A stretch of DNA of 64,000 bases from assembly GCA_965208575.1 (NCBI GenBank), contig CBDBOV010000002.1:352001-416000 (forward strand). The letters are read 5' to 3'. The notes under the pieces were generated by a model that saw nothing but the letters and a program-made list of their open reading frames with translations, was not told where the DNA came from and searched no databases. Of the stretch, positions 25,767 through 54,084 are shown in pieces. Both the position numbers and the translations under genes were made by a program. Every line of letters begins with the position of its first letter. The stretch's first letter is position 1. The DNA is from Spirochaetia bacterium. Its GTDB lineage: Bacteria > Spirochaetota > Spirochaetia > SZUA-6 > Bin103.

Positions 25767-25834
25767 GCCGACCGACCCGTCAATGCCCCGCCTCCTCCGG
25801 CGGCCCGCTGCCGGCGTGCGTGAAGCGCGTTGAA

Positions 25835-28800
25835 ATGGCCGTGAAGTTGGTCGCGCTGCGTCGCGCAACACCGCTCGTGTTTGTCCTCGCCTTGCTCGCC
25901 GGCACGTTCTGCGCTGCCGGTCCGGTGCTGGCGGAGCCGGTGGTGCGCGCCGTCGCGCTGGTGTCGGAGCCGACGGTGGACGCTGACGGGAGCGGCTCGA
26001 ACGAGACCTACAAGGTGGGCGACACGGTGCGCGCGCGGGTGACGTTCGACACGGCGGTGGACGTGGCCGGCAGCCCGGTGCTGAGGCTGCAGTTCGACCC
26101 GAGGTACGGCCAGAAGCCCATGACCTTCGACGCCACCCGGGGCCGGACGAACACGACGACGCTGGAGTTCACCTACGAGGTGGTGTCCGGCAACCTCTCC
26201 CGGCCGGGCATCGCGTTCTACGCGAACAAGCTGAGCGTGGGAGCGAACGCGAGCATCCGCGCGACCGGGACGCAGCAGAACGCGAACTTGGCGTTCGCCA
26301 GGGTGGACCACGACGCGGGCCACAAGGTGGACGGGCTCGGGCCGAAGGTGTCGAGCGCGGGGGTGGCCGGCACGACCCTGACCATCGTCTTCGACGAGCC
26401 GCTCGTCGACGCCGCCTCGCTCGCCAACAGCGCCTTCACGGTGAAGCGCACGCGCGCGGGCACCGAGGCCACGGTGAGCCTGAGCGGTTCGCCGTCGATC
26501 AGCGGCGCGACGCTGACCCTGACGCTGGCGAGCGCGGTGCTGTCGACCGACACCGCCGTCAAGGTGAGCTACGCCAAGCCCACCTCGGGCGCGGGCAACA
26601 CGCTGCGCGACGCGCCCGGCAACGACGTGAAGAACTTTGCCGATCGCGCCGTGTTGAACAAGCTGCACGCGCCGGGATCATGCGGAGCGGCCTCGAATCC
26701 CGGAGACTGGATCGCGTCGGTCACGTCCTCCACGACGACGATCAGCGTCACCTTGAAGAACCCTGCCCCGACCGGAATCGTGATTTTCGAAGTCTGCCGA
26801 GCCACGTCGCCAGGGAGGTTCAGCATCTTCAATGGCCTCAGCGTTACCGATCCTCGCGGAGGAAGCAGCCACACGTTTGACGCCGGTGGCGGCAGGCTCG
26901 ACCATCCCCTGCAATCGGGCACCGACCACTGGGTGCGTGTCCTCCCCGATTACCGCAGCGAACCCAGTGTGTGGTACTACATCCGCACCCGGGCGAACAC
27001 GGCGCCGAGCTTCGCGACGGGTGCCGCGTCGGGGTTCAGCGTGGTGGAGGGCAGCGCCGCGGGCGCGGCGGTGGGCACGGTGGCGGCGACCGACCCGGAC
27101 GGCGACACGCTGACCTATTCGCTGGCCAGCGACGGCACCGACCACGAAACGTTCGCCATCGACAGCGGCGGCCGCATCACGGTGGCGTCCGGCGCGACGC
27201 TGGAGCACGAGACGCAGGCGAGCTACTCGCTGACGGTGCAGGTGCATGACGGCAAGGACTACCGGGGCGACGCGGACAGCACGGTGGACGCGTCTCACGA
27301 CCTGACCGTGACGGTGAGGAACGTGCCGGTGGTGAGCGCCGTGGCGCTGGTGTCGGAGCCGACGGTGGACGCCGACGGCGACGGCACGGACGAGACCTAC
27401 AAGGTGGGCGATGAGGTGCGCGCGCGGGTGACGTTCGACGCGGCGGTGGACGTGGCGGGCAGCCCGGTGCTGAAGCTGGATTTCGACCCGGCGGAGTGGG
27501 GTGAGAAGTCGATGACCTTCGACGCCGCCCGGAGCCGGACGAACACGACGACGCTGGAGTTCACCTACGAGGTGGTGGCGAACAACCTGTCCACGCAGGG
27601 CATCGCGTTCTACGCGAACAAGCTGAGCGTGGGCGCGGGGGTGAGCATCCGCGCGGCGGGCAAGCAGCAGAACGCCGACCTGACCTTTGCCAAGGTGAAG
27701 CACGACGCGGCCCACAAGGTGGACGGGGTCGCGCCGGCGCTGATTGCGACCGCGCCGGTTTCGGTGACCTCGTCGGCGGGAGCGGCCGCCATTTACGCGA
27801 TCGGCGACGCGATCGAGATCACGGCGACGTTCAACGAGGCGGTGACGGTGACCACGGCGGGCACCCCGGTGGCGGGGCCGCGGCTCGCGTTCACGCTGGG
27901 GACGGGGACGAAGCACGCGGTGTACCACTCGGGCAGCGGCACGGCGGCGCTGGTGTTCCGCTACCCGGTGGCGGAGGGCGATGCGGACGGCGACGGCATT
28001 GCCGTGGCCGCGAACGGGCTGGAACTGAACGGCGGCACGATCGCGGACGCGGCCGGGAACGCGGCGGCGGCCGCGCAGCTTGAACACCCGGCCGTGGCCG
28101 CGCTTTCCGGCCACAAGGTGGACGGGGTGCGCCCGACGGTGCGGAGCGTGGTGGTGGCCGGCACGAAGCTGAAGGTGACGTTCAGCGAGACGCTGGGGGC
28201 GGCGTCGAGCCTCGCGAGCACGGCGTTCGCGGTGAAGAAGACCCCGCGGGGCGGGGTGGAGCAGACGGTGGCACTGAGCGGTTCGCCGTCGCTCTCCGGT
28301 GCGACGCTGACCCTGACGCTGGCGAGCGCGGTGGTGGGGACCGACACCGGGGTGAAGGTGAGCTACACCGCTCCCACCACGGGCACGGACAACACGCTGC
28401 GGGACGCGGTCGGCAACGACGTGAAGAGCTTTTCCGACGTGGCGGTAACGCCGATCAGGGGGGTGAGCGCCGTGGCGCTGGTGTCGGCGCCGCCCGCGGG
28501 GCAGAACGACACCTACAAGGTGGGCGATGAGGTGCGCGCGCGGGTGACGTTCAACGGCCCGGTGGACGTGACGGGCAGCCCGGTGCTGAAGCTGGATTTC
28601 GACCCTGGGGACTGGGGCGAGAAGTCGATGACCTTCGACGCCACCCGGAGCCGGACGAGCACGACGACGCTGGAGTTCACCTACGAGGTGGTGGCGGACA
28701 ACCTCTCCACGCAGGGCATCGCGTTCTACGCGAACAAGCTGAGCGCGGGCGGGAACGTGAGCATCCGCACGGCGGGGACGCAGCAGGACGCGGACCTGGC

Positions 28801-31800
28801 GTTCGCCAAGGTGGAGCACGACGCGGACCACAAGGTGGACGGGGTCCTGCCCGATCTGATTGCGGCGGATCCGGTCTCGGTGACCTCGGCGGCGGGGGCG
28901 GACGCCACCTACGCAATCGGCGACCCGATCGAGATCACGGCGACGTTCAACGAGGCGGTGACGGTGACCACGGCCGGGACCCCGGTGGCGGGGCCGCGGC
29001 TCGCACTTACGCTGGGGACGGGGACGAAGCACGCGGTGTACCACTCGGGCAGCGGCACGGCGGCGCTGGTGTTCCGCTACCCGGTGGCGGAGGGCGATGC
29101 GGACGCCGACGGCATTGCGATCGTCGGGAACGGGTTGGGACTGAACGGCGGCACGATCGCGGACGCGGCCGGGAACGCGGCGGCGGCCGAGCAGCTTGAG
29201 CACGCGGCATTGGATCGGCTCACCAGCCACAAGGTGGACGGGGTGCGCCCGACGGTGCGGAGCGCGGCGGCGGCCGGCACGAAGCTGAAGGTGACGTTCA
29301 GCGAGACGCTGGGGGCGGCGTCGAGCCTGGCGAACGGCGCGTTCGAGGTGAAGAAGACCCCGCGGGACGGGGTGGAGCAGACGGTGACGCTGAGCGGTTC
29401 GCCGTCGATCAGCGGGGCGACGCTGACCCTGACGCTGGCGAGCGCGGTGGTGGGGACCGACACCGCCATCAAGGTGAGCTACACCAGGCCGACGACGGGC
29501 ACGGCCAACACGCTGCGGGACGCGGTTGGCAATGACGCGGAGAACTTCGCCGACCAGGCGGTGCAGGTGGGCAACTTCGCGCCGAGCTTCGCGTCGGATG
29601 CTCCGTCGCGGTTCAGCGTGGCCGAGAACAGCGCCGCGGGCACGGCGGTGGGCACGGTGGCGGCCACCGACCCGGACGGCGGCACGCTGACCTATTCGCT
29701 GACCAGCGCCGGCACCGACCACAAAGCGTTCGCCATCGACAGCGGCGGCCGGATCACGGTGGCGTCCGGCGCGACGCTGGACCACGAGTCGCGGTCGAGC
29801 TACTCGCTCACCGTCCGGGTGCACGACGGCGGGAATTTCTTCGGCGGCCCGGGCACCGCCGTGGATGCGTCTCACCGCTTGACCATCACGGTGACGGACT
29901 TGACGGTCGAGCCGCCGGGGACGCCGTCGAAGCCGACGGTGAGGGGCACGCCGAGCAGCTTGCGGGTGAACTGGAACGCGCCGGACATGACCGGCCGGCC
30001 GGCGATCACGGGCTACGACGTTCGCTGGTTCAAGGGCAGCGCCGACCCGGCCCAGGACGCGCAGTGGACCAGGCACTTTCACGCCGGGGCCGCGACCCGC
30101 ACCACCATCGCCGAACTGGACCCCGGCAGCGCCTACCGGGTGCAGGTGCGGGCCGTGAACGCCGACGGCAAGAGCCCCTGGACCACCTCCGGCCAGGGCC
30201 GCACAACGTCGTCGGCGGCGCCGGCACAATGCGGATCGCCCTTGAATCCCGGAAACTGGATCGCGTCGGTCGCATCCTCCGCCACGACCGTCACCGTCAC
30301 CTTGACGACCGCTCCCCCGACCGGGACCGTTCATTTCGAAGTCTGTCAATTGGAGTTGGGGGGAGGTTACCGAACCTTTTTCGGCCGCAGCGTTACCAAT
30401 CCCGCGAGGGGCAGCAGTCATACGTTTGGCAGTGGTGGCAGCCGACCGCTGCCCTCGGGCACCGACCACTGGGTGCGTGTCCTCACCGCCTCCCACAATG
30501 CTGGCGCGTGGCACTACTTCCGCACCCGGGCGAACACGGCGCCGAGCTTCGCGACGGGTGCCGCGTCGGGGTTCAGCGTGGTGGAGGGTAGCGCCGCGGG
30601 CGCGGCGGTGGGCACGGTGGCGGCGGCCGACCCGGACGGCGATACGCTGACCTATTCGCTGGCCAGCGACGGCACGGACCACGAAACGTTCGCCATCGAC
30701 AGCGGCGGCCGCATCACGGTGGCGTCCGGCGCGACGCTGGAGCACGAGACGCAGGCGAGCTACTCGCTGACGGTGCAGGTGCATGACGGCAAGGACTACC
30801 GGGGCGACGCGGACAGCACGGTGGACGCGTCTCACGACCTGACCGTGACGGTGACGAACGTGCCGGTGGTGAGCGCGGTGGCGCTGGTGTCGGAGCCGAC
30901 GGTGGACGCCGACGGCGACGGCACGGACGAGACCTACAAGGTGGGCGACACGGTGCGTGCGCGGGTGACGTTCGACGCGGCGGTGGACGTGGCGGGCAGC
31001 CCGGTGCTGAAGCTGGATTTCGACCCGGCGGAGTGGGGCGAGAAGTCGATGACCTTCGACACCGCCCGGAGCCGGACGAACACGACGACGCTGGAGTTCA
31101 CCTACGAGGTGGTGGCGAACAACCTGTCCACGCAGGGTATCGCATTCTACGCGAACAAGCTGAGCGTGGGCGCGGGAGCGAGCATCCGAGCGGCGGGCAA
31201 GCAGCAGAACGCCGACCTGACCTTTGCCAAGGTGAAGCACGACGCGGCCCACAAGGTGGACGGGGTCGCGCCGGCGCTGATTGCGACCGCGCCGGTTTCG
31301 GTGACCTCGTCGGCGGGAGCGGCCGCCATTTACGCGATCGGCGACGCGATCGAGATCACGGCGACGTTCAACGAGGCGGTGACGGTGACCACGGCCGGGA
31401 CCCCGGTGGCGGGGCCACGGCTCGCGTTCACGCTGGGGTCGGGGACGAAGCACGCGGTGTACCACTCGGGCAGCGGCACGGCGGCGCCGGTGTTCCGCTA
31501 CACGGTGGCGGAGGGCGATGCGGACACCGACGGCATTGCCGTGGCCGAGAACGGGCTGGAACTGAACGGCGGCACGATCGCGGACGCGGCGGGGAACGCG
31601 GCGGCGGCCGCGCAGCTCGATCACCCGGCCGTCGCGGCGCTCGCCGCCCACAAGGTGGACGGGGTGCGCCCGACGGTGCGGAGCGTGGTGGTGGCCGGCA
31701 CGAAGCTGAAGGTGACGTTCAGCGAGACGCTGGGGGCGGCGTCGAGCCTCGCGAGCACGGCGTTCGCGGTGACGAAGACCCCGCGGGGCGGGGTGGAGCA

Positions 31801-34800
31801 GACGGTGGCGCTGAGCGGTTCGCCGTCGCTCTCCGGCGCGACGCTGACCCTGACGCTGGCGAGCGCGGTGGTGGGGACCGACACCGGGGTGAAGGTGAGC
31901 TACACCAAGCCGACGACGGGCACGGCCAACACGCTGCGGGACGCGGTCGGCAACGACGTGAAGAGCTTTTCCGGCGTGGCGGTAACGCCGATCAGGGGGG
32001 TGAGCGCGGTGGCGCTGGTGTCGGCGCCGCCCGCGGGGCAGAACGACACCTACAAGGTGGGCGATGAGGTGCGCGCGCGGGTGACGTTCAACGGCCCGGT
32101 GGACGTGACGGGCAGCCCGGTGCTGAAGCTGGATTTCGACCCGGCGGAGTGGGGCGAGAAGTCGATGACCTTCGACGCCACCCGGAGCCGGACGAACACG
32201 ACGACGCTGGAGTTCACCTACGAGGTGGTGGCGGACAACCTCTCCACGCAGGGCATCGCGTTCTACGCGAACAAGCTGAGCGCGGGCGGGAGCGTGAGCA
32301 TCCGCACGGCGGGGACGCAGCAGGACGCGGACCTGGCGTTCGCCAAGGTGGAGCACGACGCGGACCACAAGGTGGACGGGGTCCTGCCTGATCTGATTGC
32401 GACCGCGCCGGTGTCGGTGACCTCGGCGGCGGGGGCGGACGCCACCTACGCAATCGGCGACCCGATCGAGATCACGGCGACGTTCAACGAGGCGGTGACG
32501 GTGACCACGGCCGGGACCCCGGTGGCGGGGCCGCGGCTCGCGTTCACGCTGGGGTCGGGGACGAAGCACGCGGTGTACGCGTCGGGCAGCGGCACGGCGG
32601 CGCTGGTGTTCCGCTACCCGGTGGCGGAGGGCGATGCGGACGCCGACGGCATTGCGATCGTCGGGAACGGGTTGGGACTGAACGGCGGCACGATCGCGGA
32701 CGCGGCCGGGAACGCGGCGGCGGCCGAGCAGCTTGAGCACGCGGCATTGGATCGGCTCACCAGCCACAAGGTGGACGGGGTGCGCCCGACGGTGCGGAGC
32801 GCGGCGGCGGCCGGCACGAAGCTGAAGGTGACGTTCAGCGAGACGCTGGGGGCGGCGTCGAGCCTGGCGAACGGCGCGTTCGAGGTGAAGAAGACCCCGC
32901 GGGGCGGGGTGGAGCAGACGGTGACGCTGAGCGGTTCGCCGTCGATCAGCGGGGCGACGCTGACCCTGACGCTGGCGAGCGCGGTGGTGGGGACCGACAC
33001 CGCCATCAAGGTGAGCTACATCAGGCCGACGACGGGCACGGCCAACACGCTGCGGGACGCGGTTGGCAATGACGCGGAGAACTTCGCCGACCAGGCGGTG
33101 CCGGTCGGCAACTTCGCGCCGAGCTTCGCGTCGGATGCTCCGTCGCGGTTCAGCGTGGCCGAGAACAGCGCCGCGGGCGCGGCGGTGGGCACGGTGGCGG
33201 CCACCGACCCGGACGGCGGCACGCTGACCTATTCCCTGACCAGCGCCGGCACCGACCACGAAGCGTTCGCCATCGACAGCGGCGGCCGGATCACGGTGGC
33301 GTCCGGCGCGACGCTGGACCACGAGTCGCAGTCGAGCTACTCGCTCACCGTGCGGGTGCACGACGGCGGGAATTTCTTCGGCGGCCCGGACACCGCCGTG
33401 GATGCGTCTCACCGCTTGACCATCACGGTGACGGACTTGACGGTCGAACCGCCGGGGACGCCGTCGAAGCCGACGGTGACGGGGCGCACGCCGAGCAGCT
33501 TGCGGGTGAGCTGGACCGCGCCGGACATGACCGGCCGGCCGGCGATCACGGATTACGACGTTCGCTGGTTCAAGGGCAGCGCCGACCCGGCGCAGGACGC
33601 GCAGTGGACCAGGCACTTCCACGCCGGGGCCGCGACGCGCACCACCATCGCCGAACTGGACCCCGGCAGCGCCTACCGGGTGCAGGTGCGGGCCGTGAAC
33701 GCCGACGGCAAGAGCCCCTGGACCACCTCCGGCCAGGGCCGCACAACGTCGTCGGCGGCGCCGGCACGATGCGGATCGACCTCGGATCCCGAGGAGTGGA
33801 TCGCGTCGGTCACGTCGACCGCGACATCGATCACCTTCACCTTCAAGAACAGCCTTCCGCAGGTTACCGCGGGGGTTCTTGTGCAGATCTGTCGGCCCGA
33901 GTCATCCACTTCGGGCCGGTACCGACGCTCGCAGGCCTCCAGCATTTTTGGTAACCCTGCCGGGGGAAGCAGCCACACGATTGCGGACTTCGACGATCAT
34001 CGAGGCGGAAGGATCGCTCTGCAACCGGGCACCGACTACTGGCTGCGTGTCGACTCCCAATACACCGCGAATGCCAGCGCCTGGCACTACATCGCCACCA
34101 AACCGAGCCTGGCGGTAAGCGCCGTGGCGCTGGTGTCGGAGCCGACGGTGGACGCGGACGGGGACGGCACGAACGAGACCTACAAGGTGGGCGACACGGT
34201 GCGCGCGCGGGTGACGTTCAACCGCCCGGTGGACGTGACGGGCAGCCCGGTGCTGAAGCTGGATTTCGACCCGGCGGACTGGGGCGAGAAGTCGATGACC
34301 TTCGACGCCGCCCGGAGCCGGACGAACACGACGACGCTGGAGTTCACCTACGAGGTGGTGGCGGGCAACCTCTCCACGCAGGGCATCGCGTTGCACGCCA
34401 ACGAGCTGCGCCTGGGCGCGGGGGCGAGCATCCGCGCGGCGGGCAAGCAGCAGAACGCCGACCTGACCTTTGCCAAGGTGGAGCACGACGCGGCTCACAA
34501 GGTGGACGGGGTCGCGCCGGCGCTGATTGCAGCCGCCCCGGTCTCGGTGACCTCGGCGGCGGGGGACGACGCCACCTACGCGATCGGCGACCCGATCGAG
34601 ATCTCGGCGACGTTCAACGAGGCGGTGACGGTGACCGCGGCCGGGACCCCAGGGGCGGGGCCGCGGCTCGCGTTCACGCTGGGGTCGGGGACGAAGCACG
34701 CGGTATACCACTCGGGCAGCGGCACGGCGGCGCCGGTGTTCCGCTACACGGTGGCGGAGGGCGATGCGGACGCCGATGGCATCGCCGTGGCCGAGAACGG

Positions 34801-37800
34801 GTTGGGACTGAACGGCGGCGCGATCGCGGACGCGGCGGGGAACGTCGCGGCGGCCGCGCAGCTCCGGCACCCGGCCGTCGCGGCGCTCGCCACCCACAAG
34901 GTGGACGGCGTGCGTCCGACGGTGCGGGGCGCGACAGTGGACGGCAAGACGCTGAGGGTGACGTTCAGCGAGACGCTGGGGCCGGCTGCGAGGCTCGCGA
35001 ACGGCGCCTTCGTGGTGAAGAAAACCCCGCAGGGCGAGATGGAGCAGACGGTGACGCTGAGCGGCTCGCCGTCGATCGCGGGCGCGTCGGTGACGCTGAC
35101 CCTGGCGAACAAGGTGCTGCGCACCGACACCGGGGTGAAGGTGAGCTACACCGCACCCACTACGGGTGCGGATAACAGGCTGCGGGACGCGGCCGGCAAC
35201 GACGCGGAAGACTTTCCCGACGTGACGGCCTCGTTTTCCAATGGGGTGAGCGCCGTGGCGCTGGTGTCGGCGCCGCCGGCCGGGCAGAACGACACCTACA
35301 AGGTGGGCGACGTGGTGCGCGCGCGGGTGACGTTCGGCAGCCCGGTGGACGTGGTCGGCAACCCGGTGCTGAAGCTGCAGTTCGCGGAGGATTCCGGCGA
35401 GAAGAGCATGACCTTCGACGCCACCCGGAGCCGGACGAACACGACGACGCTGGAGTTCACCTATACGGTGGGAGCCGGCGACCGCTCCACGCAGGGCATC
35501 GCGTTCTACGCGAACAAGTTGAGCGTGGGCGAGGGGGGAAGCATCCGCACGGCGGGGACGCAGCAGAACGCCGACCTGACCTTTCCCAAGGTGAACCACG
35601 ATGCGGGGCACAAGGTGGACGGGACCTTGCCCGCGCTGATTGCGAACGATCCGATCACGGTGACCTCGTCGGCGGGGCCGGACAAAACCTACGCGGTCGG
35701 CGAGACGATCGACATCACCGCGACGTTCACTGAGCCGGTGACGGTGACGACATTCGGCAACCCGGTGGAACAGCCGAGCTTAGTTTTCAGCGTCGGCACT
35801 ATCTGGGATTTTAGAACTGCGGTGTACCACTCGGGCAGCGGCACGAACAAGCTGGTGTTCCGCTACACGGTGGCCGCGAGCGATACCGACACCGACGGCG
35901 TATCCTTCGTCGGGTACGCTATTTCGCTGGGACCGCGTGGAAAAACCGCCAAGATCGCCGACGCCGTGGGGAACGCGGCGGGGCGCGACCAGCTCGCGAA
36001 CGTCGCCGCCGGGCCGCTCTCCAGCCACAAGGTGGACGGCAGCCTGACGGTCTCCGACACGCCGCCGCTTTTCGTGAGCGCGACGGTCGACGGCGCGGCG
36101 CTCACCCTGAACTACAACGAGGAGCTGGACGGAACCTCGGAGCCCGTATCGGGCGCCTTCGCGGTGAAGGTGAACGGGAATGCGGTGAATCTCGCCGCGT
36201 CCGACCCGGTGGAGGTGGCCGGTACCACGGTGACGCTGACGCTCGCTCAGGCGGTCACCCGCGGACAGACGGTGACGGTGAGCTATACGGCGCCGTCCGA
36301 GAATCCGATTCGGGACTCTGACGGCAACCGCGCGGGGAGTATCTCTGAGCAGCCGGTCGCGGTCACCGTGGGCGCGAGCGTGGCGGCGCCGACGTTCAGC
36401 CCGGCCGCCGGCGCCACCGCCGGCCCCGGCACGAGCATCACGCTGACCTTCGCCGAGGCGCTGCGCAAGGACGCGTCCGGCACGGAGCTGGCGAACGGCG
36501 ACCTGGCCGCCATCCTGACGCTGAAGACGACCGACGCCGACGGCACCGACATCGGCTTCACGGCGACTATCGACGCGGCGAAGCAGGTGATCACCGTCAC
36601 GCCGAACAACGCCCTGGCCGGAGGCGCGGTGTTCGTGGCGATCTCGGGTAGTTACTTCGACGAACACGGCAACCAGGGCGCGGCGGCGAGCGCGACGTTC
36701 ACGGTAGACGTGACCGCGCCGGCGGCGCCGGCGTTCAGCCCGGCGGGCGGCGCGACGGTGACTGACGCGGCGCGCAACCTCACGCTGACCTTCGCGGAGG
36801 CGATCCACAAGGACGCGTCCGGCACGGAGCTGGGGAACGGCGACCTGGCCGGCATCCTGACGCTGAAGACGGACGACGAGAACGGCACCGACATCGGGTT
36901 CACGGCGACCATCGACGCGGCCATGCAGGTGATCACGGTCGCCCCGACGGCGGACCTGGCCGATGGCGCGGTGTACGTGGCGATCTCGGACGGCTACTAC
37001 GACGAGCACGGCAACCAGGGCACGGCGGCAAGCGCCACCTTCACCGTCGACACCAGCGTGACAGCGCCGACGTTCAGCCCGGCGGCCGACACCACGGCCG
37101 GTCCCGGCACGAGCATCACGCTGACCTTCGCCGAAGCGCTGCGCAAGGACGCGTCCGGCATGGCGCTGGCGAACGACGACCTGGCCGGCATCCTGACGCT
37201 GAAGACGGACGACGAGAACGGCACCGACATCGGGTTCACGGCGACCATCGACGCGGCGAAGCAGGTGATCACGGTCGCCCCGACGGCTAACCTGGCCGGC
37301 GGCGACGTCTATGTCGCGATCTCGGACGGCTACTACGACGAGCACGGCAACCAGGGCGCGGCGGCGAGCGCGACGTTCACGGTAGACGCCACCGCGCCGG
37401 CGGCGCCGGCGTTCAGCCCGGCGGGCGGCGCGACGGTGACTGACGCGGCGGGCAACCTCACGCTCAGGTTCGCCGAGGCGATCCACAAGGACGCGCAGGG
37501 CGGCGACTTCGCCGCCACCGATCTCGCCGGCATCCTGACGCTGAAGACGACCGACGCCGACGGCACCGACATCGGGTTCACGGCGACCATCGACGCGGCG
37601 AAGCAGGTGATCACCCTCGACCCGACGGCGGACCTGGCCGACGGCGCGGTGTACGTGGCCGTCTCGGACGGCTACTTCGATAAGTACGGCAACCAGGGCA
37701 CGGCCGCAAGCGCCACCTTCACCGTCGACACCAGCGTGGCGGCGCCAACGTTCAGCCCGGCCGCCGGCGCCACCGCCGGCCCGGGCACGAGCATCACGCT

Positions 37801-40800
37801 GACCTTCGCCGAAGCGCTGCGCAAGGACGCGTCCGGTACGGCGCTCGCGAACGGCGACCTCGCCGCGCTGCTGACACTGAAGACGGGCGACGCGGACGGC
37901 ACGGACATCGGCTTCAGGGCGACCATCGACGTGGCGAAGCAGGTGATCACGGTCGACCCGACGGCGGACCTGGCCGGCGGTGACGTCTATGTCGCGATCT
38001 CGGACGGCTACTACGACGAGCACGGCAACCAGGGCGCGGCGGCGAGCGCGACGTTCACGGTAGACGCCACCGCGCCGGCGGCGCCGGCGTTCAGCCCGGC
38101 GGGCGGCGCGACGGTGACTGACGCGGCGGGCAACCTCACGCTCACGTTCGCTGAGGCGATCCACAAGGACGCCCAGGGCGGCGACTTCGCCGCCACCGAT
38201 CTCGCCGGCATCCTGACGCTGAAGACAGGCAACGCGGACGGCACGGGCATCGGCTTCACGGCGACCATCGACGCGGCGAAGAGGGTGATCACGGTCGACC
38301 CGACGGCGGACTTGGCCGACGGCGACGTCCATGTCGCGGTCACGGACGGCTACTACGACGAGCACGGCAACCAGGGCCCGGCGGCAAGCGCCACCTTCAC
38401 CGTCGACACCAGTGTGGCGGCGCCAACGTTCAGCCCGGCCGCCGGCGCCACCGCGGGCCCCGGCACGAGCATCACGCTGACCTTCTCCGAGGCGCTGCGC
38501 AAGGACGCGTCCGACACGGCACTGGCGGACGGCGACCTTGCCGGCATCCTGACGCTGAAGACGACCGACGCCGACGGCACCGACATCGGCTTCACGGCGA
38601 CCATCGATGCGGCGAAGCAGGTGATCACCGTCACGCCGACCAACGGCTTGGCCGGAGGCGCGGTGTACGTGGCCGTCACGGACGGCTACTACGACGAACA
38701 CGGCAACCAGGGCGCGGCGGCGAGCGCGACGTTCACGGTAGACGCTACCGCGCCGGCGGCGCCGGCGTTCAGCCCGGCGGGCGGCGCGACGGTGACTGAC
38801 GCGGCGAGCCACCTCACGCTCACGTTCGCCGAGGCGATCCACAAGGACGCCCAGGGCGGCGACTTCGCCACCACCGACCTCGCCGGCATCCTGACGCTGA
38901 AGACGGACGACGAGAACGGCACCGACATCGGGTTCACGGCGACCATCGACGCGGCGAAGCAGGTGATCACGGTCGACCCGACGGCGGACCTGGCCGAGGG
39001 CGCGGTGTACGTGGCGGTCTCGGACGGCTACTACGACGAGCACGGCAACCAGGGTACGGCGGCAAGCGCGACCTTCACTGTCGACACCAGCGTGACGGCG
39101 CCGACGTTCAGCCCGGCCGCCGGCGCCACCGCCGGCCCCGGCACGAGCATCACGCTGACATTCGCCGAGGCGCTGCGCAAGGACGCGGCCGGCACCGCAC
39201 TGGCGAACGGCGACCTCGCCGCGCTGCTGACACTGAAGACGGGCGACGTTGACGGCCCGGCCATCGGGTTCACGGCGACCATCAATGCGGCGAAGCAGGT
39301 GATCACGGTCGACCCGACGGCGAACCTGGCCGGCGGCGACGTCTATGTCGCGATCTCGGACGGCTACTACGACGAGCACGGCAACCAGGGCGCGGCGGCG
39401 GGCGCGACGTTCACGGTGGACGCGACCGCGCCGGCGGCGCCGGCGTTCAGCCCGGCCGGCGTGACGGTGACTGACGCGGCGGGCAACCTCACACTCACGT
39501 TCGCTGAGGCGATCCACAAGGACGCGCAGGGCGGCGACTTCGCCACCACCGACCTCGCCGGCATCCTGACGCTGAAGACAGGCAACGCGGACGGCACGGG
39601 CATCGGCTTCACGGCGACCATCGACGCGGCGAAGCAGGTGATCACGGTCGACCCGACGGCAGACCTGGCCGATGGCGCGGTGTACGTGGCCGTCTCGGAC
39701 GGCTACTTCGATAAGTACGGCAACCAGGGCACGGCCGCAAGCGCCACCTTCACCGTCGACACCAGCGTGGCGGCGCCAACGTTCAGCCCGGCCGCCGGCG
39801 CCACCGCCGGCCCCGGCACGAGCATCACGCTGACCTTCGCCGAAGCGCTGCGCAAGGACGCGTCCGGTACGGCGCTCGCGAACGGCGACCTCGCCGCGCT
39901 GCTGACACTGAAGACGGGCGACGCGGACGGCACGGACATCGGCTTCACGGCGACCATCGACGCGGCGAAGCAGGTGATCACCGTCACGCCGACCAACGGC
40001 TTGGCCGGAGGCGCGGTGTACGTGGCCGTCACGGACGGCTACTACGACGAACACGGCAACCAGGGCGCGGCGGCGAGCGCGACGTTCACGGTAGACGCTA
40101 CCGCGCCGGCGGCGCCGGCGTTCAGCCCGGCGGGCGGCGCGACGGTGACTGACGCGGCGAGCCACCTCACGCTCACGTTCGCCGAGGCGATCCACAAGGA
40201 CGCCCAGGGCGGCGACTTCGCCACCACCGACCTCGCCGGCATCCTGACGCTGAAGACAGGCAACGCGGACGGCACGGGCATCGGCTTCACGGCGACCATC
40301 GACGCGGCGAAGCAGGTGATCACGGTCGACCCGACGGCGGACCTGGCCGAGGGCGCGGTGTACGTGGCGGTCTCGGACGGCTACTACGACGAGCACGGCA
40401 ACCAGGGTACGGCGGCAAGCGCGACCTTCACTGTCGACACCAGCGTGACGGCGCCGACGTTCAGCCCGGCCGCCGGCGCCACCGCCGGCCCCGGCACGAG
40501 CATCACGCTGACATTCGCCGAGGCGCTGCGCAAGGACGCGGCCGGCACCGCACTGGCGAACGGCGACCTCGCCGCGCTGCTGACACTGAAGACGGGCGAC
40601 GTTGACGGCCCGGCCATCGGGTTCACGGCGACCATCAATGCGGCGAAGCAGGTGATCACGGTCGACCCGACGGCGAACCTGGCCGGCGGCGACGTCTATG
40701 TCGCGATCTCGGACGGCTACTACGACGAGCACGGCAACCAGGGCGCGGCGGCGGGCGCGACGTTCACGGTGGACGCGACCGCGCCGGCGGCGCCGGCGTT

Positions 40801-43800
40801 CAGCCCGGCGGCCGGCGTGACGGTGACTGACGCGGCGGGCAACCTCACGCTCACGTTCGCTGAGGCGATCCACAAGGACGCCCAGGGCGGCGACTTCGCC
40901 ACCACCGACCTCGCCGGCATCCTGACGCTGAAGACAGGCAACGCGGACGGCACGGGCATCGGCTTCACGGCGACCATCGACGCGGCGAAGCAGGTGATCA
41001 CGGTCGACCCGACGGCAGACCTGGCCGATGGCGCGGTGTACGTGGCCGTCTCGGACGGCTACTTCGATAAGTACGGCAACCAGGGCACGGCCGCAAGCGC
41101 CACCTTCACCGTCGACACCAGCGTGGCGGCGCCAACGTTCAGCCCGGCCGCCGGCGCCACCGCCGGCCCGGGCACGAGCATCACGCTGACCTTCGCCGAA
41201 GCGCTGCGCAAGGACGCGTCCGGTACGGCGCTCGCGAACGGCGACCTCGCCGCGTTGCTGACGCTGAAGACAACCGACGCGGACGGCCCGGACATCGGCT
41301 TCACGGCGACTATCGACGCGGCGAAGCAGGTGATCACGGTCGACCCGACGGCGAATCTGGCCGGCGGCGACGTCTATGTCGCGATCACGGACGGTTACTT
41401 CGACGAACACGGCAACCAGGGCGCGGCGGCGAGCGCGACGTTCACGGTGGACGCGACCGCGCCGGCGGCGCCGGCGTTCAGCCCCGTCGCCGGAGCGACG
41501 GTGACTGACGCGGCGGACAACATCACGCTCACGTTCGCCGAGGCGATCCACAAGGACGCGTCCGGCACGGATCTGGCGATCGGCGACCTCGCCGGCATCC
41601 TGACGCTGAAGAGGGGCGATGCCGACGGCACCGATGTCGGCTTCACGGCGACCATCGACGCGGCGGAGCAGGTGATCACCCTCGACCCGACGGCGGACCT
41701 GGCCGATGGCGCGGTGTACGTGGCGATCACGAACGGCTACTTCGACGAGCACGGCAACCAGGGCGCGGCGGCAAGCGCGACCTTCACTGTCGACACCAGC
41801 GTGGCGGCGCCAACGTTCAGCCCGGCCGCCGGCGCGACTGCGGGCCCCGGCGCGAGCATCACGCTGACCTTCGCCGAGGCGCTGCGCAAGGACGCGTCCG
41901 GCACGGCGCTGGCGAACGGCGACCTCGGCGCGTTGCTGACGCTGAAGACAACCGACGCGGACGGCCCGGACATCGGCTTCACGGCGACTATCGACGCGGC
42001 GAAGCAGGTGATCACGGTCGACCCGACGGCGAACCTGGCCGGCGGCGACGTCTATGTCGCGATCACGGACGGTTACTTCGACGAACACGGCAACCAGGGC
42101 GCGGCGGCAAGCGCGACGTTCACGGTGGACGCGACCGCGCCGGCGGCGCCGGCGTTCAGCCCCGTCGCCGGAGCGACGGTGACTGACGCGGCGGACAACA
42201 TCACGCTCACGTTCGCCGAGGCGATCCACAAGGACGCGTCCGGCACGGATCTGGCGATCGGCGACCTCGCCGGCATCCTGACGCTGAAGAGGGGCGATGC
42301 CGACGGCACCGATGTCGGCTTCACGGCGACCATCGACGCGGCGAAGCAGGTGATCACCCTCGACCCGACGGCGGACCTGGCCGATGGCGCGGTTTACGTG
42401 GCGATCACGAACGGCTACTTCGACGAGCACGGCAACCAGGGCGCGGCGGCAAGCGCGACCTTCACTGTCGACACCAGCGTGGCGGCGCCAACGTTCAGCC
42501 CGGCCGCCGGCGCGACTGCGGGCCCCGGCACGAGCATCACGCTGACCTTCGCCGAGGCGCTGCGCAAGGACGCGTCCGGCACGGCGCTGGCGGCCGGCGA
42601 CCTGGCCGGCATCCTGACGCTGAAGACGACCGATGCCGACGGCACGGACATCGGCTTCACGGCGACCATCAATGCGGCGAAGCAGGTGATCACGGTCGAG
42701 CCGACGGCGAACCTGGCCGGCGGTGAGGTCTATGTCGCGATCTCGGACGGCTACTACGACGAGCACGGCAACCAGGGCGCGGCGGCAAGCGCGACGTTCA
42801 CGGTAGACGCGACCGCGCCGGCGGCGCCGACGTTCCGGCCGGCGGCCGGCGCGACGGTGACTGACGCGGCGGGCAACCTCACGCTGACCTTCGCGGAGGC
42901 GCTGCACAAGGACGCGTCCGGTACGGCGCTGGCGATCGGCGACCTCGCCGGCATCCTGACGCTGAAGAGGGGCGATGCCGACGGCAACGATATCGGGTTT
43001 GCGGCGACCATCGACGCGGCGAAGCAGGTGATCACGGTCGACCCGACGGCGGACCTGGCCGACGGCGCGGTGTACGTGGCGGTCTCGGACGGCTACTTCG
43101 ACGAGCACGGCAACCAGGGCACGTCCGCAAGCGCCACCTTCACCGTCGACACCAGCGTGGCGGCGCCGACGTTCAGCCCGGCGGCCGACACCACGGCCGG
43201 TCCCGGCACGAGCATCACGCTGACCTTCGCCGAAGCGCTGCGCAAGGACGCGTCCGGCACGGCGCTCGCGAACGACGACCTGGCCGGCATCCTCACGTTG
43301 AAGACGACCGATGCCGACGGCACGGACATCGGCTTCACGGCGACCATCGATGCGGCGGAGCAGGTGATCACGGTCGCCCCGACGGCGGACCTGGCCGGCG
43401 GCGACGTCTATGTCGCGATCTCGGACGGCTACTTCGACGAGCACGGCAACCAGGGTACGGCGGCGAGCGCGACGTTCACGGTGGACGCGACCGCGCCGGC
43501 GGCGCCAGCGTTCAGCCCGGCGTCCGGCGCGACGGTGGCTGACGCGGCGGGCAACCTCACGCTGACCTTCGCGGAAGCGATCCACAAGGACGCGTCCGGC
43601 ACGGCGCTTGCGAACGGCGACCTGGCCGGCATCCTGACGCTGAAGACGGGCGACGCGGACGGCACGGCCATCGGCTACACGGCGACCATCGACGCGGCGA
43701 AGCAGGTGATCACGGTCGCCCCGACGGCGGACCTGGCCGACGGCGCGGTGTACGTGGCGGTCACGGACGGCTACTTCGACGAGCACGGCAACCAGGGCTC

Positions 43801-46800
43801 GGCGGCAAGCGCGACCTTCACTGTCGACACCAGCGTGACGGCGCCGACGTTCAGCCCGGCCGCCGGCGCCACCGCCGGCCCCGGCACGAGCATCACGCTG
43901 ACCTTCGCGGAGGCGTTGCGCAAGGACGCCACCGGCACGGCGCTCGCGGCCGGCGACCTGGCCGGCATCCTGACGCTGAAGACGAGCGACGCGGACGGCA
44001 CGGACATCGGGTTCACGGCGACTATCGACGCGGCGAAGCAGGTCATCACCCTCGACCCGACGGCGGACCTGGCGGACGGCGCGGTGCACGTGGCGATCAC
44101 GAACGGCTACTACGACGAGCACGGCAACCAGGGCGCGGCGGCGAGCGCCACGTTCACGGTCGACGCGAGCGCGCCGACGGCGCCGACGTTCACCCCGGCC
44201 GGCGGCGCGACGGTGACCGACGCGGCCAGCAACATCACGCTGACCTTCGCCGAGGCGCTGCACAAGGACGCCCAGGGGGGCGAGTTCGCCGCCACCGATC
44301 TGGCCGGCATCCTGACGCTGAAGACGGGCGACGCGGACGGCACGGCCATCGGCTACACGGCGACCATCAACGCGGCGAAGACGGTGATCACCCTCGACCC
44401 GACGGCGGACCTGGCGGACGGCGCGGTGTACGTGGCGGTCACGGACGGCTACTTCGACGAGCACGGCAACCAGGGTGCGGCGGCGAGCGCCACGTTCGCC
44501 GTCGACACCAGCGTGGCGGCGCCAACGTTCAGCCCGGCTGCCGGCGCCACCGCCGGCCCCGGCACGAGCATCACGCTGACCTTCGCCGAAGCGCTGCGCA
44601 AGGACGCGTCCGGTACGGCGCTCGCGAACGGCGACCTTGCCGCGCTGCTGACACTGAAGACGAGCGACGCGGACGGCACGGATATCGGGTTCACGGCGAC
44701 CATCGATGCGGCGGAGCAGGTGATCACCGTCACCCCGACCAACGCCCTGGCCGAGGGCGCGGTGTACGTGGCGGTCACGGACGGCTACTTCGACGAGCAC
44801 GGCAACCAGGGTACGGCGGCGAGCGCGACGTTCACGGTGGACGCGAGCGCCCCGGCGGCGCCGACGTTCCGGCCGGCGGCCGGCGCGACGGTAACCGACG
44901 CGGCGGGCAACATTACGCTTACCTTCGCCGAACCGCTGCACAAGGACGCGGCCGGCACGGCGCTGGCGAACGGTGACTTGGCCGGCATCCTGACGCTGAA
45001 GACGGGCGATGAGAACGGGACGGCCATCGGCTTCACAGCGACCATCGACGCGGCGAAGCGGGTGATCACCCTCGACCCGACGGCGGAACTGGCCGACGGT
45101 GCGGTGTACGTGGCGGTCTCGGACGGCTACTACGATGCGCACGGCAACCAGGGCGCGGCGGCCAACGCCACCTTCACGGTCGACACCAGCGTGGCGGCGC
45201 CGACGTTCCTCCCGGCCGCCGGCGCCACCGCCGGCCCCGGCACGAGCATCACGCTGACCTTCGCCGAGGCGCTGCGCAAGGACGCGGCCGGCACGGCGCT
45301 GGCGAACGGTGACCTGGCCGGCATCCTGACGCTGAAGACGGGCGACGAGAACGGCACGGCCATCGGCTTCACGGCGACCATCGATGCGGCGGAGCAGGTG
45401 ATCACCGTCACCCCGACCAACGCCCTGGCCGAGGGCGCGGTGTACGTGGCGGTCACGGACGGCTACTTCGACGAGCACGGCAACCGGGGTGCGGCGGCGA
45501 GCGCGACGTTCACGGTGGACGCGAGCGCGCCGGCGCCGCCGACGTTCAGCCCGGCTGCCGGCGCGACGGTAACCGACGCGGCGAGCAACATCACGCTGAC
45601 TTTCGCGGAGGCGCTGCACAAGGACGCGTCCGGCACGGCGCTGGCGAACGGCGACCTGGCAGGGCTCCTGACGCTGAAGACGGGCGACGAGAACGGCACC
45701 GACATCGGCTACACGGCGACCATCGACGCGGCGAAGACGGTGATCACCCTCGACCCGACGGCGGACCTGGCCGACGGCGCGGTGTACGTGGCGGTCTCGG
45801 ACGGCTACTTCGACGAGCACGGCAACCAGGGCGCGGCGGCCAACGCCACGTTCACGGTCGACACCAGCGTGGCGGCGCCGACGTTCAGCCCGGCCGCCGG
45901 CGCGACCGCCGGCCCCGGCACGAGCATCACGCTGACCTTCGCCGAGGCGCTGCGCAAGGACGCGGCCGGCACGGCGCTGGCGAACGGCGACCTCGCCGCA
46001 CTGCTGACGCTGAAGACCGGCGACGCAGACGGCACGGCCATCGGCTTCACGGCGACCATCGACGCGGCGAAGCAGGTGATCACGGTCGACCCGACGACGA
46101 ACCTGGCGGACGGCGCGGTGTACGTGGCGATCACGAACGGCTACTACGACGAGCACGGCAACCAGGGCGCGGCGGCGAGCGCCACGTTCACGGTCGACGC
46201 GAGCGCGCCGACGGCGCCGACGTTCACCCCGGCCGGCGGCGCGACGGTGACCGACGCGGCCAGCAACATCACGCTGACCTTCGCCGAGGCGCTGCACAAG
46301 GACGCCCAGGGGGGCGAGTTCGCCGCCACCGATCTGGCCGGCATCCTGACGCTGAAGACGGGCGACGCGGACGGCACGGCCATCGGCTACACGGCGACCA
46401 TCGACGCGGCGAGGACGGTGATCACCCTCGACCCGACGGCGGACTTGGCCGACGGTGCGGTGTACGTGGCGGTCACGGACGGCTACTACGACGAGCATGG
46501 CAACCAGGGCGTGGCGGCGAGCGCGACGTTCACGGTCGACACCAGCGTGGCGACGCCGACGTTCAGCCCGGCCGCCGGCGCCACCGCCGGCCCCGGCACG
46601 AGCATCACGCTGACCTTCGCCGAAGCGCTGCGCAAGGACGCGTCCGGTACGGCGCTCGCGAACGGCGACCTGGCCGCGCTGCTGACACTGAAGACGAGCG
46701 ACGCGGACGGCACGGACATCGGGTTCACGGCGACCATCGATGCGGCGGAGCAGGTGATCACCGTCACCCCGACCAACGCCCTGGCCGAGGGCGCGGTGTA

Positions 46801-49800
46801 CGTGGCGGTCTCGGATGGCTACTTCGACGAGCACGGCAACCGGGGTGCGGCGGCGAGCGCGACGTTCACGGTGGACGCGAGCGCGCCGGCGCCGCCGACG
46901 TTCAGCCCGGCTGCCGGCGCGACGGTAACCGACGCGGCGAGCAACATCACGCTGACTTTCGCGGAGGCGCTGCACAAGGACGCGTCCGGCACGGCGCTGG
47001 CGAACGGCGACCTGGCAGGGCTCCTGACGCTGAAGACGGGCGACGAGAACGGCACCGATATCGGGTTCACGGCGACCATCGATGCGGCGAAGCGGGTGAT
47101 CACAGTCGACCCGACGGCGGACCTGGCCGATGGCGCGGTGTACGTGGCGGTCACGGACGGCTACTACGACGAGTACGGCAACCAGGCCGCGGCGGCGGAG
47201 GCCACCTTCACCGTGGACACCAGCGTGGCGGCGCCGACGTTCCTCCCGGCCGCCGGCGCCACCGCCGGTCCCGGCACGAGCATCACGCTGACGTTCGCGG
47301 AGGCGATCCACAAGAACGCCCAGGGTGGCGACTTCGCCACCACCGACCTGGCCGGCATCCTGACGCTGAAGGTGGGCGATGCCGACGGCACGGCCATCGG
47401 CTACACGGCGAGCATCGACGCGGCGAAGACGGAGATCACCCTCGACCCGACGGCGGACCTGGCCGACGGCGCGGTGTACGTGGCGGTCTCGGACGGCTAC
47501 TACGACGAGCACGGCAACCAGGGTGCGGCCGCGAGCGCGACGTTCACGGTCACCGTGGTCGGCACGGCGCCCGTCGTAACCGGGGTGGCGGTGGTCTCGG
47601 ACGCAGGAAGCGACGCCACCTATCTCCTGGGCGACAAGATCCGGGTGCGCCTCACGTTCAGCGAGGCGGTGAAGGTGACGGGGACGCCGCGGCTCTCGAT
47701 CGACATGAACCCGGCAGTGTGGGGCGAGAAGCGGGCGGCCTACGAGGGCGCGCGCGATACGGCCGTGCTGTCGCTCACCTTCGCCTACGAGGTGGTGGAG
47801 CCGAACATCTCGACGCAGGGGATCGCGGTGCTGGCCAACACGCTGGCGCTTGACGGCGGCACGATCCGCTCGGTGGCGACCGACGCGGCCGCGGCGTTGA
47901 GCCACGCAGGGCTTGCGCACGACCCGGCGCACCGGGTGGACGCGGTACCGCCGCAGTTGCTGCGGGGTGAGATCGATGGCGGGACGATGACGCTCTATTT
48001 CAGCGAGGCGCTGGACCCGGACGCGACCGGGGGCGAGTTCCTCATGGGCGTGGAGGTCCCGGAGCTGGGCGTGATGGGCTTCGTTGCCGCGGGCGACGTG
48101 GCGGTCGACGGCAAGACGGTGACGGTCGGCCTGGGCGAGCGCAATCCGCGGGCGACGCCGGGCCTGGAGCGCAACAACGTCCTCTACGCCCGGCGCGCCG
48201 ACGGCGGCGGCGGGGCGCTGCGGGACGTTGCCGGCAACCCGGTGCTGGCGCGGTATCCGATGCATCGCGGCAACGGCGAGGAGTGGAGGTACGTCGCCAT
48301 CGACCTCGAAAACGTCACCGCCGACACCAGCGTGGCGGCGCCGACGTTCAGCCCGGCCGGCGGCGCGACGGTGACCGACGCGGCGAGCGACATCACGCTG
48401 ACCTTCGGCGAGACGGTCCACAAGGACGCCCAGGGCGGCGACTTCACCACCACCGACTTGGCCGGCATCCTGACGCTGACGGTGGGCGACGAGAACGGCA
48501 CCGCCATCGGCTTCACGGCGACCATCGACGCGAAGAAGAAGGTCATCACCATCGACCCGACGGCGGACTTGGCCGAGGGCGCGGTGTACGTGGCGGTCAC
48601 GGATGGCTACTTCGACGAGCACGGCAACCAGGGTACGGCGGCGAGCGCGACGTTCACGATCGCCGTGGTGGGCACGGCGCCCGGCGTGACCCGGGTGGCG
48701 GTGGTCTCGGACGCAGGAAGCGACGCCACCTACGCGGCGGGTGAGACCGTGCGGGTGGCGCTGACCTTCGGCGAGGCGGTGGCGGTCGACACCGAAGGCG
48801 GGACGCCGCGGCTGAAGCTCGACCTCGGTGGCGACGACGGCACGGGCGAGCGCTGGGCGGCGTACGAGAACGGCTCCGGCACCGACACGCTGACCTTCGC
48901 CTGGGAGGCGGCAGCGCCGGACGAATCGGCCGCGGGTGTCGCGGTGCTCGCGGACACGCTGGAGCTTGACGGCGGCACCATCAGGTCGGTTGAGACGCAG
49001 ACGGATGCGCTGCTCGGCCATGGGGGACTCGCGCACGACCCGGCGCACCGGGTGGACGCGGCACCGCCGCAGTTGCTGCGGGGCGAGATCGACGGCGGAA
49101 CGATGACGCTCTATTTCAGCGAGGCGCTGGACCCGGACTCCACGGGCGGTCAGTTCCTCATGAGTCTGGAGACCCCGGAGGGCGTGGAGGGCTTCCGCGC
49201 CAGGGGCGACGTGGTGGTCGACGGCGCGACCGTGACGGTCGGCATGGGCGCGGCCCTTCTGCGGCCGACGCCGGGCCTGGAGCGTAACCGCGTCCAGTAC
49301 ACACGGCGCGCTGACGGCGCCGACGGGGCGCTTCGCGACATGGCCGGCAACCTGGTAGAGGGGCACGGGTCGGCGCTCTGCACGGGGGACGGCTGCGTCG
49401 AGACACGGTCCGCCGAGATCGACCTGGCCAACGTCACCCCACGCACGCCCCGGGTGACGGGGGTGGCGGTGGTCTCGGACGCGGGCGCGGACGGCTTGTA
49501 TGGCGAGGGTAAGAGGGTCAAGGCGGCGGTAACCTTCACCACGCAGGTGCGGGTCGAGACCGCCGAGGGCGTGCCGACGCTGGCGCTGATCGCGAACGGC
49601 GGGATCCGGCGGGCGGCGTACCTCTCGGGCTCAGGGACGGCGCGGCTGGTGTTCGCGTACCGCGCGGTCGAGGCGGGCGGCTTGCAGGCGCCGGTACGGG
49701 TGGCGGCGTCGGGGCTCAAGCTCAACGGCGGTGCGATCGTGGCGGCGCCGGGCGGCGCGGCGGCGGCGCTCGGCTTCGGCGAAGCGCCGGGGGTGACGGC

Positions 49801-53859: not shown

Positions 53860-54084
53860 TCACCTATCGTCCGCGGGGAGATCGGGGATTGCCACCGGCT
53901 GATTGAAGTCGAAACCTCCGTCGGTCATGACGTACGCTTCGTCGTCGTCGAACAGGGCACCCCAGCGGCCGTCGGGTAGAGGCCACATGACAGCATGCTT
54001 GACTCGCAAGCGCCCGACAGCACGTACCTCGTGAGCCGGAGTGATCTCCTGCCCCGAGAAGTCGGTTTCCTGCTCATCCGCCAT
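53860..54084 (-). CDS. Small acidic hypothetical protein, candidate immunity/partner of the MuF C-terminal domain
   Basis: 74-aa ORF whose ATG overlaps the end of muF; last gene before the putative element end. Confidence 0.6.
   Translation of the reverse strand: MADEQETDFSGQEITPAHEVRAVGRLRVKHAVMWPLPDGRWGALFDDDEAYVMTDGGFDFNQPVAIPDLPADDR

Follow-up and report, generated by a model that had tools for sequence, protein, structure and literature searches.

Within the 64,000-nucleotide stretch of Spirochaetia bacterium DNA analysed here (assembly GCA_965208575.1, contig CBDBOV010000002.1, positions 352,001 to 416,000; hereafter ‘the window’) lies a 27-kb gene that we read, from its sequence, as encoding a giant autotransporter-type adhesin. 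In the N-terminal third of its product, three copies of a two-cysteine domain resembling fibronectin type III (FN3), which we call modules M1, M2 and M3, alternate with long blocks of other domains (B1 and B2) that are almost identical to each other. We propose that the modules are probably old, fast-evolving paralogs, which have escaped the gene conversion that homogenises their flanks. A preliminary description of the same DNA had instead seen in them a hypervariable, antibody-like variable-receptor system; as set out below, much of what it reported about the sequence holds, whilst that interpretation does not.

Self-comparison of the gene brings out a super-unit repeat of 3.55 kb (26669-30303 against 30218-33843); taken in windows of 60 bases, the aligned copies agree at 55-60 positions over 3.2 kb and at 34-51 within the module. 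Between B1 and B2 there are 84 substitutions in 3,234 nt (2.6%; protein identity 96.4%), patchily placed at scattered sites and equivalent by the Nei-Gojobori method (NG86) to a synonymous divergence (dS) of 0.048 and a non-synonymous divergence (dN) of 0.019. Between M1 and M2, 77 substitutions fall in only 303 aligned nt (~25%; dS 0.43, dN 0.27), and M3 stands further from both M1 (dS 0.56, dN 0.40) and M2 (dS 0.64, dN 0.44). The gulf in substitution density between M1/M2 and B1/B2 (Fisher p = 2e-42) bears out the preliminary description, which had contrasted strongly differing module loops with 3.2-kb blocks that hardly differ. Its module starts are also exact, each falling on a Cys codon that opens the motif CG....P..WIASV in the translated frame, and the loops it quoted (RATSPGRFSIF, QLELGGGYRTF and RPESSTSGRYRRSQASSIF) can all be found in the translation; alignment places the module ends a few bases beyond those it gave (Table 1). 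The two cysteines are spaced by 38 residues in M1 and M2 and by 40 in M3, the module loops carry insertions and deletions (indels), and the boundaries of the divergent segments are abrupt, matching domain edges on both sides.

We suggest that this pattern arose in several steps. The tandem duplication behind the super-units would be old, with the near-identity of B1 and B2 a younger, secondary feature. From end to end M2 matches M1 at ~75% identity, and it is less like M3, such that nowhere is it near-identical to either, which places the super-unit duplication before the events that made B1 and B2 alike; a recent duplication of the super-unit is ruled out, because the middle module would then nearly match one of the outer ones somewhere. 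We also rejected the idea of M2 as a recent M3/M1 chimera, produced by unequal crossing-over, since M2 is nearer to M1 throughout and far below 97% identity to either. Gene conversion or unequal recombination between super-units, acting at the kilobase scale, would then keep B1 and B2 alike. Positional partners between the super-units are closer (T1a/T2a, dS 0.071; T1b/T2b, dS 0.025) than neighbours inside one super-unit (dS 0.13-0.15), which argues for homogenisation at that scale. A conversion tract starting from any point in a block would halt where homology fails, that is, at the module edges, and such arrest would be enough to give edges that are sharp and follow the domain exactly, with no need for a special mechanism, as long as the modules were already more diverged. 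We envisage that the modules were left out in this way as the domain evolved faster than its neighbours and gathered indels, so that heteroduplex formation would stop; once excluded, they would go on diverging at synonymous and non-synonymous sites alike.

Repeats within a gene can evolve in concert while divergent islands escape conversion, as is known from repeat adhesins and multigene families, and the locus described here resembles such cases in that divergent segments sit between homogenised ones. Thus, the blocks are 96% alike within the gene and only ~65% identical to the corresponding part of homologues such as P0004, although the conversion events themselves are something that we infer. 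It differs from them in that the escaping island is here a whole domain with a codon signature of its own, present in 6/6 copies (see below). The pattern of divergent modules between near-identical repeats also recurs in a second gene of the genome, on contig C5.

Prior divergence of the modules is plausible for several reasons. In two collinear homologues the module is much less conserved than its surroundings, with 40% identity (104 columns) against 65% for the flanks (1,002 columns) in P0004, and 43% (100 columns) against 64% (353 columns) in P0092; there are the loop indels; and there is the position of M3 in a tree of the module family. M1 and M2 are sisters in that tree (support 100/98), with M3 in an unresolved trichotomy with modules from the proteins of two other organisms (clade support 98/95). 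As M3 is no closer to M1 and M2 than are the modules of those two organisms, the split that separates it must be an old one. A further homologue, P0002, speaks to the nature of the domain itself: its two modules are 97-98% identical (39/40 residues in each of three windows) and sit inside a repeat of 907 residues with 93% overall identity (pairwise aligner), from which it follows that the module is not intrinsically hypervariable.

What, then, is the module? None of the three copies reaches a Pfam or NCBIfam threshold (M1 and M2 match no family at all, and M3 has sub-threshold matches only). A profile built from the three copies, run against 1.84 billion representative proteins, finds 60 proteins at E <= 1e-3, with 51 full-length domains in 42 proteins, the window's own included; M1-M3 themselves score E 1e-55 to 1e-60 on their own profile and 3e-29 to 9e-39 on the family profile. 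Both cysteines are kept in 51/51 of the full-length domains (48 of which have exactly two), and both are invariant in the 35/35 family members that were aligned, as the preliminary description had proposed for the three copies. Members share, along with the Cys pair, the motifs W-I-x-S-V, TDYW-V-R and Y-I-R-T over a length of ~105-120 residues. An AlphaFold2 (AF2) model from the 35-sequence alignment (pLDDT 91.7, pTM 0.84), which supersedes an earlier one from three sequences (pLDDT 68.6), predicts a seven-strand beta-sandwich of FN3 topology, and the top Foldseek matches to this model in the PDB are almost all FN3 domains (probability 1.00, TM ~0.5, best E 7e-4); the FN3-like character first suggested for the modules is thereby upheld. 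Sub-threshold Pfam matches among the 35 members are to fn3 in 4 (best E 0.0019) and to Pur_ac_phosph_N in 12 (best E 3.8e-4). Taken together, the shared motifs and the predicted model identify the module as a rare subfamily of apparent FN3 fold that is uncatalogued in Pfam and NCBIfam. Because the Cys pair is invariant, it presumably forms a disulfide, which would tie the N-terminal segment to strand C. The disulfide loops of autotransporter passengers are mostly few and short, and three loops of 38-40 residues would then be unusual.

The modules also stand apart in base composition at the third codon position. Their G+C content at that position (GC3) is 0.78, 0.75 and 0.76 for M1, M2 and M3, whereas the blocks have 0.95 and the gene as a whole 0.936, which confirms the earlier remark that they use A/T-ending codons atypical for the gene. 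They form its three deepest GC3 troughs, and 24 of its 25 lowest 100-codon windows overlap a module. Amino-acid composition was considered as the source of this and is ruled out: it predicts a module GC3 of 0.946-0.948, and 0/200,000 simulations fell as low as the values observed. Across the genome, 105-codon windows have a mean GC3 of 0.89 (sd 0.07) and 4-9% of them are as low as the modules, which therefore lie in the low tail without being extreme; the open reading frames (ORFs) used here had been pre-filtered at GC3 > 0.75, such that the real share of low windows is somewhat higher. Ten A/T-ending third positions are common to M1, M2 and M3, which indicates that the low GC3 is ancestral and not the result of fresh mutation. 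Moreover, GC3 lies at 0.75-0.85 in 6/6 of the module copies having DNA (three genes, two genomes), and along the module of genome G021 (L018) it dips to 0.72-0.80 between flanks of 0.88-0.98. Reduced recombination in a divergent island is expected to reduce GC-biased conversion there, and we tentatively suggest that the lower GC3 of the modules may stem from this. We note in passing that the Arg of the W-V-R-[VI] motif is encoded by CGT or CGA in 5/5 of the copies that have it, whilst 96% of the gene's Arg codons end in G or C.

The second gene bears on these arguments. It lies on contig C5 of genome G000 (~1091780-1098619, minus strand; L024, L025), is likewise of autotransporter type, and has an open frame of 2,280 residues in which two shorter two-Cys modules (residues 435-521 and 724-815) stand between near-identical repeats of ~97 residues. 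GC3 dips to 0.76-0.84 in its modules and is 0.96-1.00 in its repeats; the modules are 61% identical to each other and the flank that follows them 90%.

Several observations weigh against the explanation that we favour. Abrupt, domain-exact boundaries are equally expected if homogenisation is selected against, or if modules are replaced as cassettes. The Calx-beta domain and barrel region at the C-terminal end of the protein, which are not repeated, have a GC3 of 0.943, so that an account of the GC3 trough by reduced conversion is incomplete; the same value weakens the simpler suggestion, which we had considered, that low GC3 comes merely from being non-repeated. Lastly, the C5 module pair has a proportion of non-synonymous differences (pN) of 0.244 against a synonymous one (pS) of 0.110, with a dN/dS of 2.5 (one-sided p = 0.017), and this ratio points to positive selection in the module family. 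Against that, dN/dS in the C5 flanks is itself 1.0-1.4, where extreme codon bias has probably lowered dS, and the ratio of non-synonymous to synonymous differences (nd:sd) in the C5 modules is not significantly different from that in their flanks (p = 0.15).

The C5 ratio belongs to a wider case for diversifying selection as the main cause, under which the modules would bind different ligands, homogenising conversions would be purged and new loop variants favoured. The domain-exact edges of the divergence fit such a cause, as does the module being the least conserved domain in the collinear homologues, and a role as a binding head is suggested by the 22/51 family domains that start within 70 residues of the N-terminus, right behind a signal peptide, at the tip of surface proteins. 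Strands C and C' and the E-F loop are the most variable segments of the module, and by FN3 topology the two that also bear indels (the C-C' hairpin and the E-F loop) presumably share one pole; the BC and FG loops, which we take to lie at the opposite pole, vary as well. However, dN/dS among M1-M3 is 0.63-0.70, which is not raised over the older paralogous repeat units (0.61-0.80) or the cadherin domains (0.70-1.23), and synonymous divergence (0.43-0.64, against 0.048 in the blocks) has risen as much as non-synonymous; a rise in both speaks for greater age, or a generally higher rate, and not for selection on protein changes alone. Nor is the variation confined to loops, with strands as variable as the rest (the share of invariant positions is 33% in strands and 29% elsewhere), and the positions at which M1-M3 differ tend to be the variable ones of the family as a whole (Spearman 0.50, p = 1.6e-8). 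The lack of a significant nd:sd difference in C5, and the two near-identical modules tolerated by P0002, tell in the same direction. Thus, the divergence far beyond the flanks stands, whilst the diversifying selection proposed in the preliminary description may or may not have acted on these modules; we consider it rather unlikely as the main cause, and selection for different specificities is possible.

Cassette import would account for the same boundaries in another way, by homologous recombination in the conserved fn3 and cadherin flanks, which would replace whole modules by alleles of other strains or species of the community. The high dS of the modules and their departure from the codon usage seen elsewhere in the gene would fit this, as would the patchy distribution of the family: it is found in 0/10 genomes of the same genus, in 1/13 of the family's other genus (plus one dubious match elsewhere in the order) and in 0/400 other genomes of the class, where 11 candidates were scored per genome. 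M3, furthermore, is no nearer in the tree to M1 and M2 than to modules of other organisms. Contigs of four sequencing runs were aligned to 29920-30900, and in X1, X3 and X7, which are sponge and marine runs, they cover the flanks and the 5' part of the module at 87-90% identity; the module centre (~30349-30513) is without cover in these runs, which can be read neither as divergence nor as absence. Yet the GC3 trough in 6/6 copies, the distant C5 and G021 modules among them, makes it a trait of the family and not of a donor, and the A/T third positions that M1-M3 have in common suggest that all three descend from one ancestor, with M1 and M2 as sisters. Further alleles with the same flanks, which the preliminary description would have led one to expect, were found neither in the genome nor in any of three scans, two of metagenomes and one of a genome collection. 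Its appeal to recombination thus holds for the flanks, which appear to be homogenised by it, and fails for module swapping, there being no silent cassettes in the genome: blastn and tblastn of the modules against all 6.5 Mb return M1-M3 themselves and two distant protein-level matches in the C5 gene. Cassette antigenic variation of the pilE/pilS, vlsE and MgPa types (for MgPa, PMC2169797) offers a likeness in its variable segments between conserved flanks that could guide recombination, and differs in the same respect, as this genome holds no silent donors and no heterogeneity is seen among the assembled contigs, in which rare variants would be lost. All told, import of cassettes seems to us quite unlikely.

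There is no close ortholog of the gene among the species-representative genomes searched, no homologous protein exceeded 57% identity across the greater part of the query, a 309-residue piece spanning fn3, M2 and cadherin has no relative in the metagenome contigs, and a search for relatives by alignment pattern in metagenome and genome contigs gave matches, none of which was confirmed. A Protein Atlas search reached scores of 0.84-0.85, to which we give no weight. The flanking repeat type is more widespread: of 15 other genomes in the family, 12 have it, in open frames of 6,000-11,000 residues and at no more than 49% identity.

A targeted hypermutation system, whether a diversity-generating retroelement (DGR) or something similar of unknown mechanism, would raise dS together with dN and shift third positions towards A/T; both rates do exceed those of the flanks by ~ninefold or more, and the shift is there. 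A DGR also shares with this gene the placing of variation in a domain of a surface protein, with variable segments on a conserved scaffold. The modules differ in being internal FN3-like domains without a DGR-type reverse transcriptase (RT), a template repeat or an adenine-specific pattern of change. No template repeat was found in the 6.5-Mb genome by blastn or tblastn, and the Pfam scan of the ORFs neighbouring the gene revealed no RT or recombinase system. The genome has eight RVT_1 matches, none of them within the window: five are identical in score, two are fragments and the eighth is below the cut-off. The five identical-scoring ORFs lie on five contigs (L009-L013) and the fragments at L014 and L015; L009 (one of the five, classified) and both fragments have TIGR04416, the group II intron RT/maturase family, as their best hit. 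Because the classified RTs are of group II intron type and all 12 substitution classes occur between the modules, a DGR is excluded; the preliminary description had likewise held one unsupported, given the absence of an adenine-specific pattern and of an RT in the window, and was correct on both counts. Targeted hypermutation of either kind is very improbable, as the A/T third positions are shared among modules and hence inherited, and as the modules of P0002 are near-identical. In the probable source run (X8), in addition, a single 351-nt contig covers 30198-30548, including M2, with 0 differences, although contigs hide rare variants.

That contig also bears on whether the arrangement could be an assembly artefact, in which the near-identical 3.5-kb units had been joined wrongly, with modules brought in from separate loci or strains. 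Repeats of such length and likeness are difficult for assemblers, and the contamination estimate for the genome is 5.75%. Against this, the X8 contig bridges both edges of M2 without a difference, no junction interrupts the frame, which runs on for 9,152 codons, and the 84 scattered B1/B2 differences show that these are not collapsed copies; the collinear homologue P0004, moreover, has the same domain order around M1. We regard an artefact as extremely improbable.

Returning to the modules as old paralogs that escaped homogenisation, we find the antibody-like reading weakly supported by comparison, and nothing indicates programmed hypervariation. Most likely, as we infer, the modules act as binding or head domains of different specificities. 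A broader proposal combines several of the ideas weighed above: the two-Cys module would serve the giant adhesins of host-associated marine bacteria as a dedicated recognition head that can be exchanged, and an active process would create its diversity or keep it up, be it diversifying selection, cassette exchange between strains or a local, non-DGR mutational regime. The GC3 trough would be the footprint of this process, a recombination-cold or mutation-hot island set in repeat genes that are homogenised elsewhere. We think this unlikely.

The gene as a whole (Table 1) occupies an open frame of 9,152 codons (25199-52657, plus strand). The ATG listed as the likely start is the first Met of this frame and is followed by what appears, as judged by eye, to be a signal peptide, with a charged and then a hydrophobic stretch running to ...AGPVLA-EP; the in-frame stretch ahead of it, from 25199 to 25835, is Arg/Gly/Pro-rich and non-coding in look. 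Pfam domains in the N-terminal third of the protein are SWM_repeat, Big_5, Cadherin and fn3. At the other end, the autotransporter barrel model TIGR01414 scores 34.4 bits (E 1.3e-8; cut-off 16) within the final 485 residues, a Pfam scan of the same region giving no match; a C-terminal outer-membrane beta-barrel of the type Va autotransporter kind is thus predicted, and the last residue of the protein is aromatic. Downstream of the likely start, the only cysteines are the module pairs, one in the signal peptide and one CxxxxC (ALCTGDGCVE, at open-frame residues 8061/8066, ~49379-49396), the last being the mature protein's only Cys pair outside the modules. The long array of 336-nt repeats is 81% matching, has a GC3 of 0.947 and alternates between two sub-types (SVAAPTFSP... 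and TAPAAPAFSP...).

Table 1. Features of the giant adhesin gene, in window positions.
Feature	Position	Strand	Details
Giant adhesin gene	25835..52657	+	ATG start at 25835 likely; ~8,940 residues; Pfam and NCBIfam domains
Module M1	26681..26995	+	Two-Cys FN3-like domain; SWM_repeat upstream, cadherin downstream
Block B1	26996..30229	+	Cadherin, 2 copies of a ~359-residue three-domain unit, cadherin, fn3
Module M2	30230..30532	+	fn3 upstream, cadherin downstream
Block B2	30533..33769	+	Near-identical to B1
Module M3	33770..34102	+	fn3 upstream, no cadherin downstream; most divergent; three insertions
Partial third block	34104..36039	+	~85% DNA identity to parts of B1/B2; dS 0.16-0.21
Repeat array	36377..47551	+	33 copies of a 336-nt Big_5-type repeat
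Calx-beta domain	50966..51205	+	Pfam, 70.2 bits
C-terminal region	51200..52654	+	Predicted autotransporter-type beta-barrel (NCBIfam TIGR01414); ends ...TASW

Pfam scans of long ORFs identify the upstream neighbours as housekeeping genes (ketol-acid reductoisomerase, MoxR/VWA, ArgJ). An insertion sequence (IS) transposase (DDE_Tnp_1 with DUF772) lies at 11154-12515 on the plus strand, and directly downstream of the giant gene, on the minus strand (54074-59106 and 62538-63296), are Mu-like prophage genes (Mu F-like, Mu portal, Mu gp27) and an S24/HTH repressor. The 359-residue repeat unit has 66 matches genome-wide, spread over at least 10 large open frames; the genome thus holds a large family of giant repeat adhesins, and the two-Cys module occurs in just two of these genes. 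The host bacterium is probably marine or sponge-associated: sponge and marine metagenome runs contain related sequence, and the homologues of the flanking domains come, by their source names, from metagenome bins of several phyla, sponge-type bins among them. Reports on sponge symbionts (e.g. PMC11706023 and PMC6506613) include cadherin and FN3 repeats among the eukaryotic-like proteins of these bacteria.

With the FN3 domains (PF00041, PF16656) of repeat adhesins and of such sponge-symbiont proteins, the module shares its predicted seven-strand sandwich and its cadherin, fn3 and Ig-like neighbours; it differs from them in its invariant Cys pair, its long C-C' hairpin, its own motifs and its frequent position behind a signal peptide. 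Monobodies and adnectins, several of which are among the Foldseek matches, have the same fold and show that variation could in principle be borne by loops, whereas the variation of the module extends beyond the BC, DE and FG loops.

As the claim of a variable-receptor design is not upheld, the importance of the finding is modest. Saying that, the two-Cys FN3 subfamily is a candidate host- or matrix-binding head of adhesins in sponge-associated and marine bacteria, and the locus provides a clean natural case of a whole domain escaping concerted evolution within a repeat gene. The domain-specific drop in GC3, seen in three genes and two genomes, could in turn inform how recombination and GC-biased conversion affect codon usage within genes.

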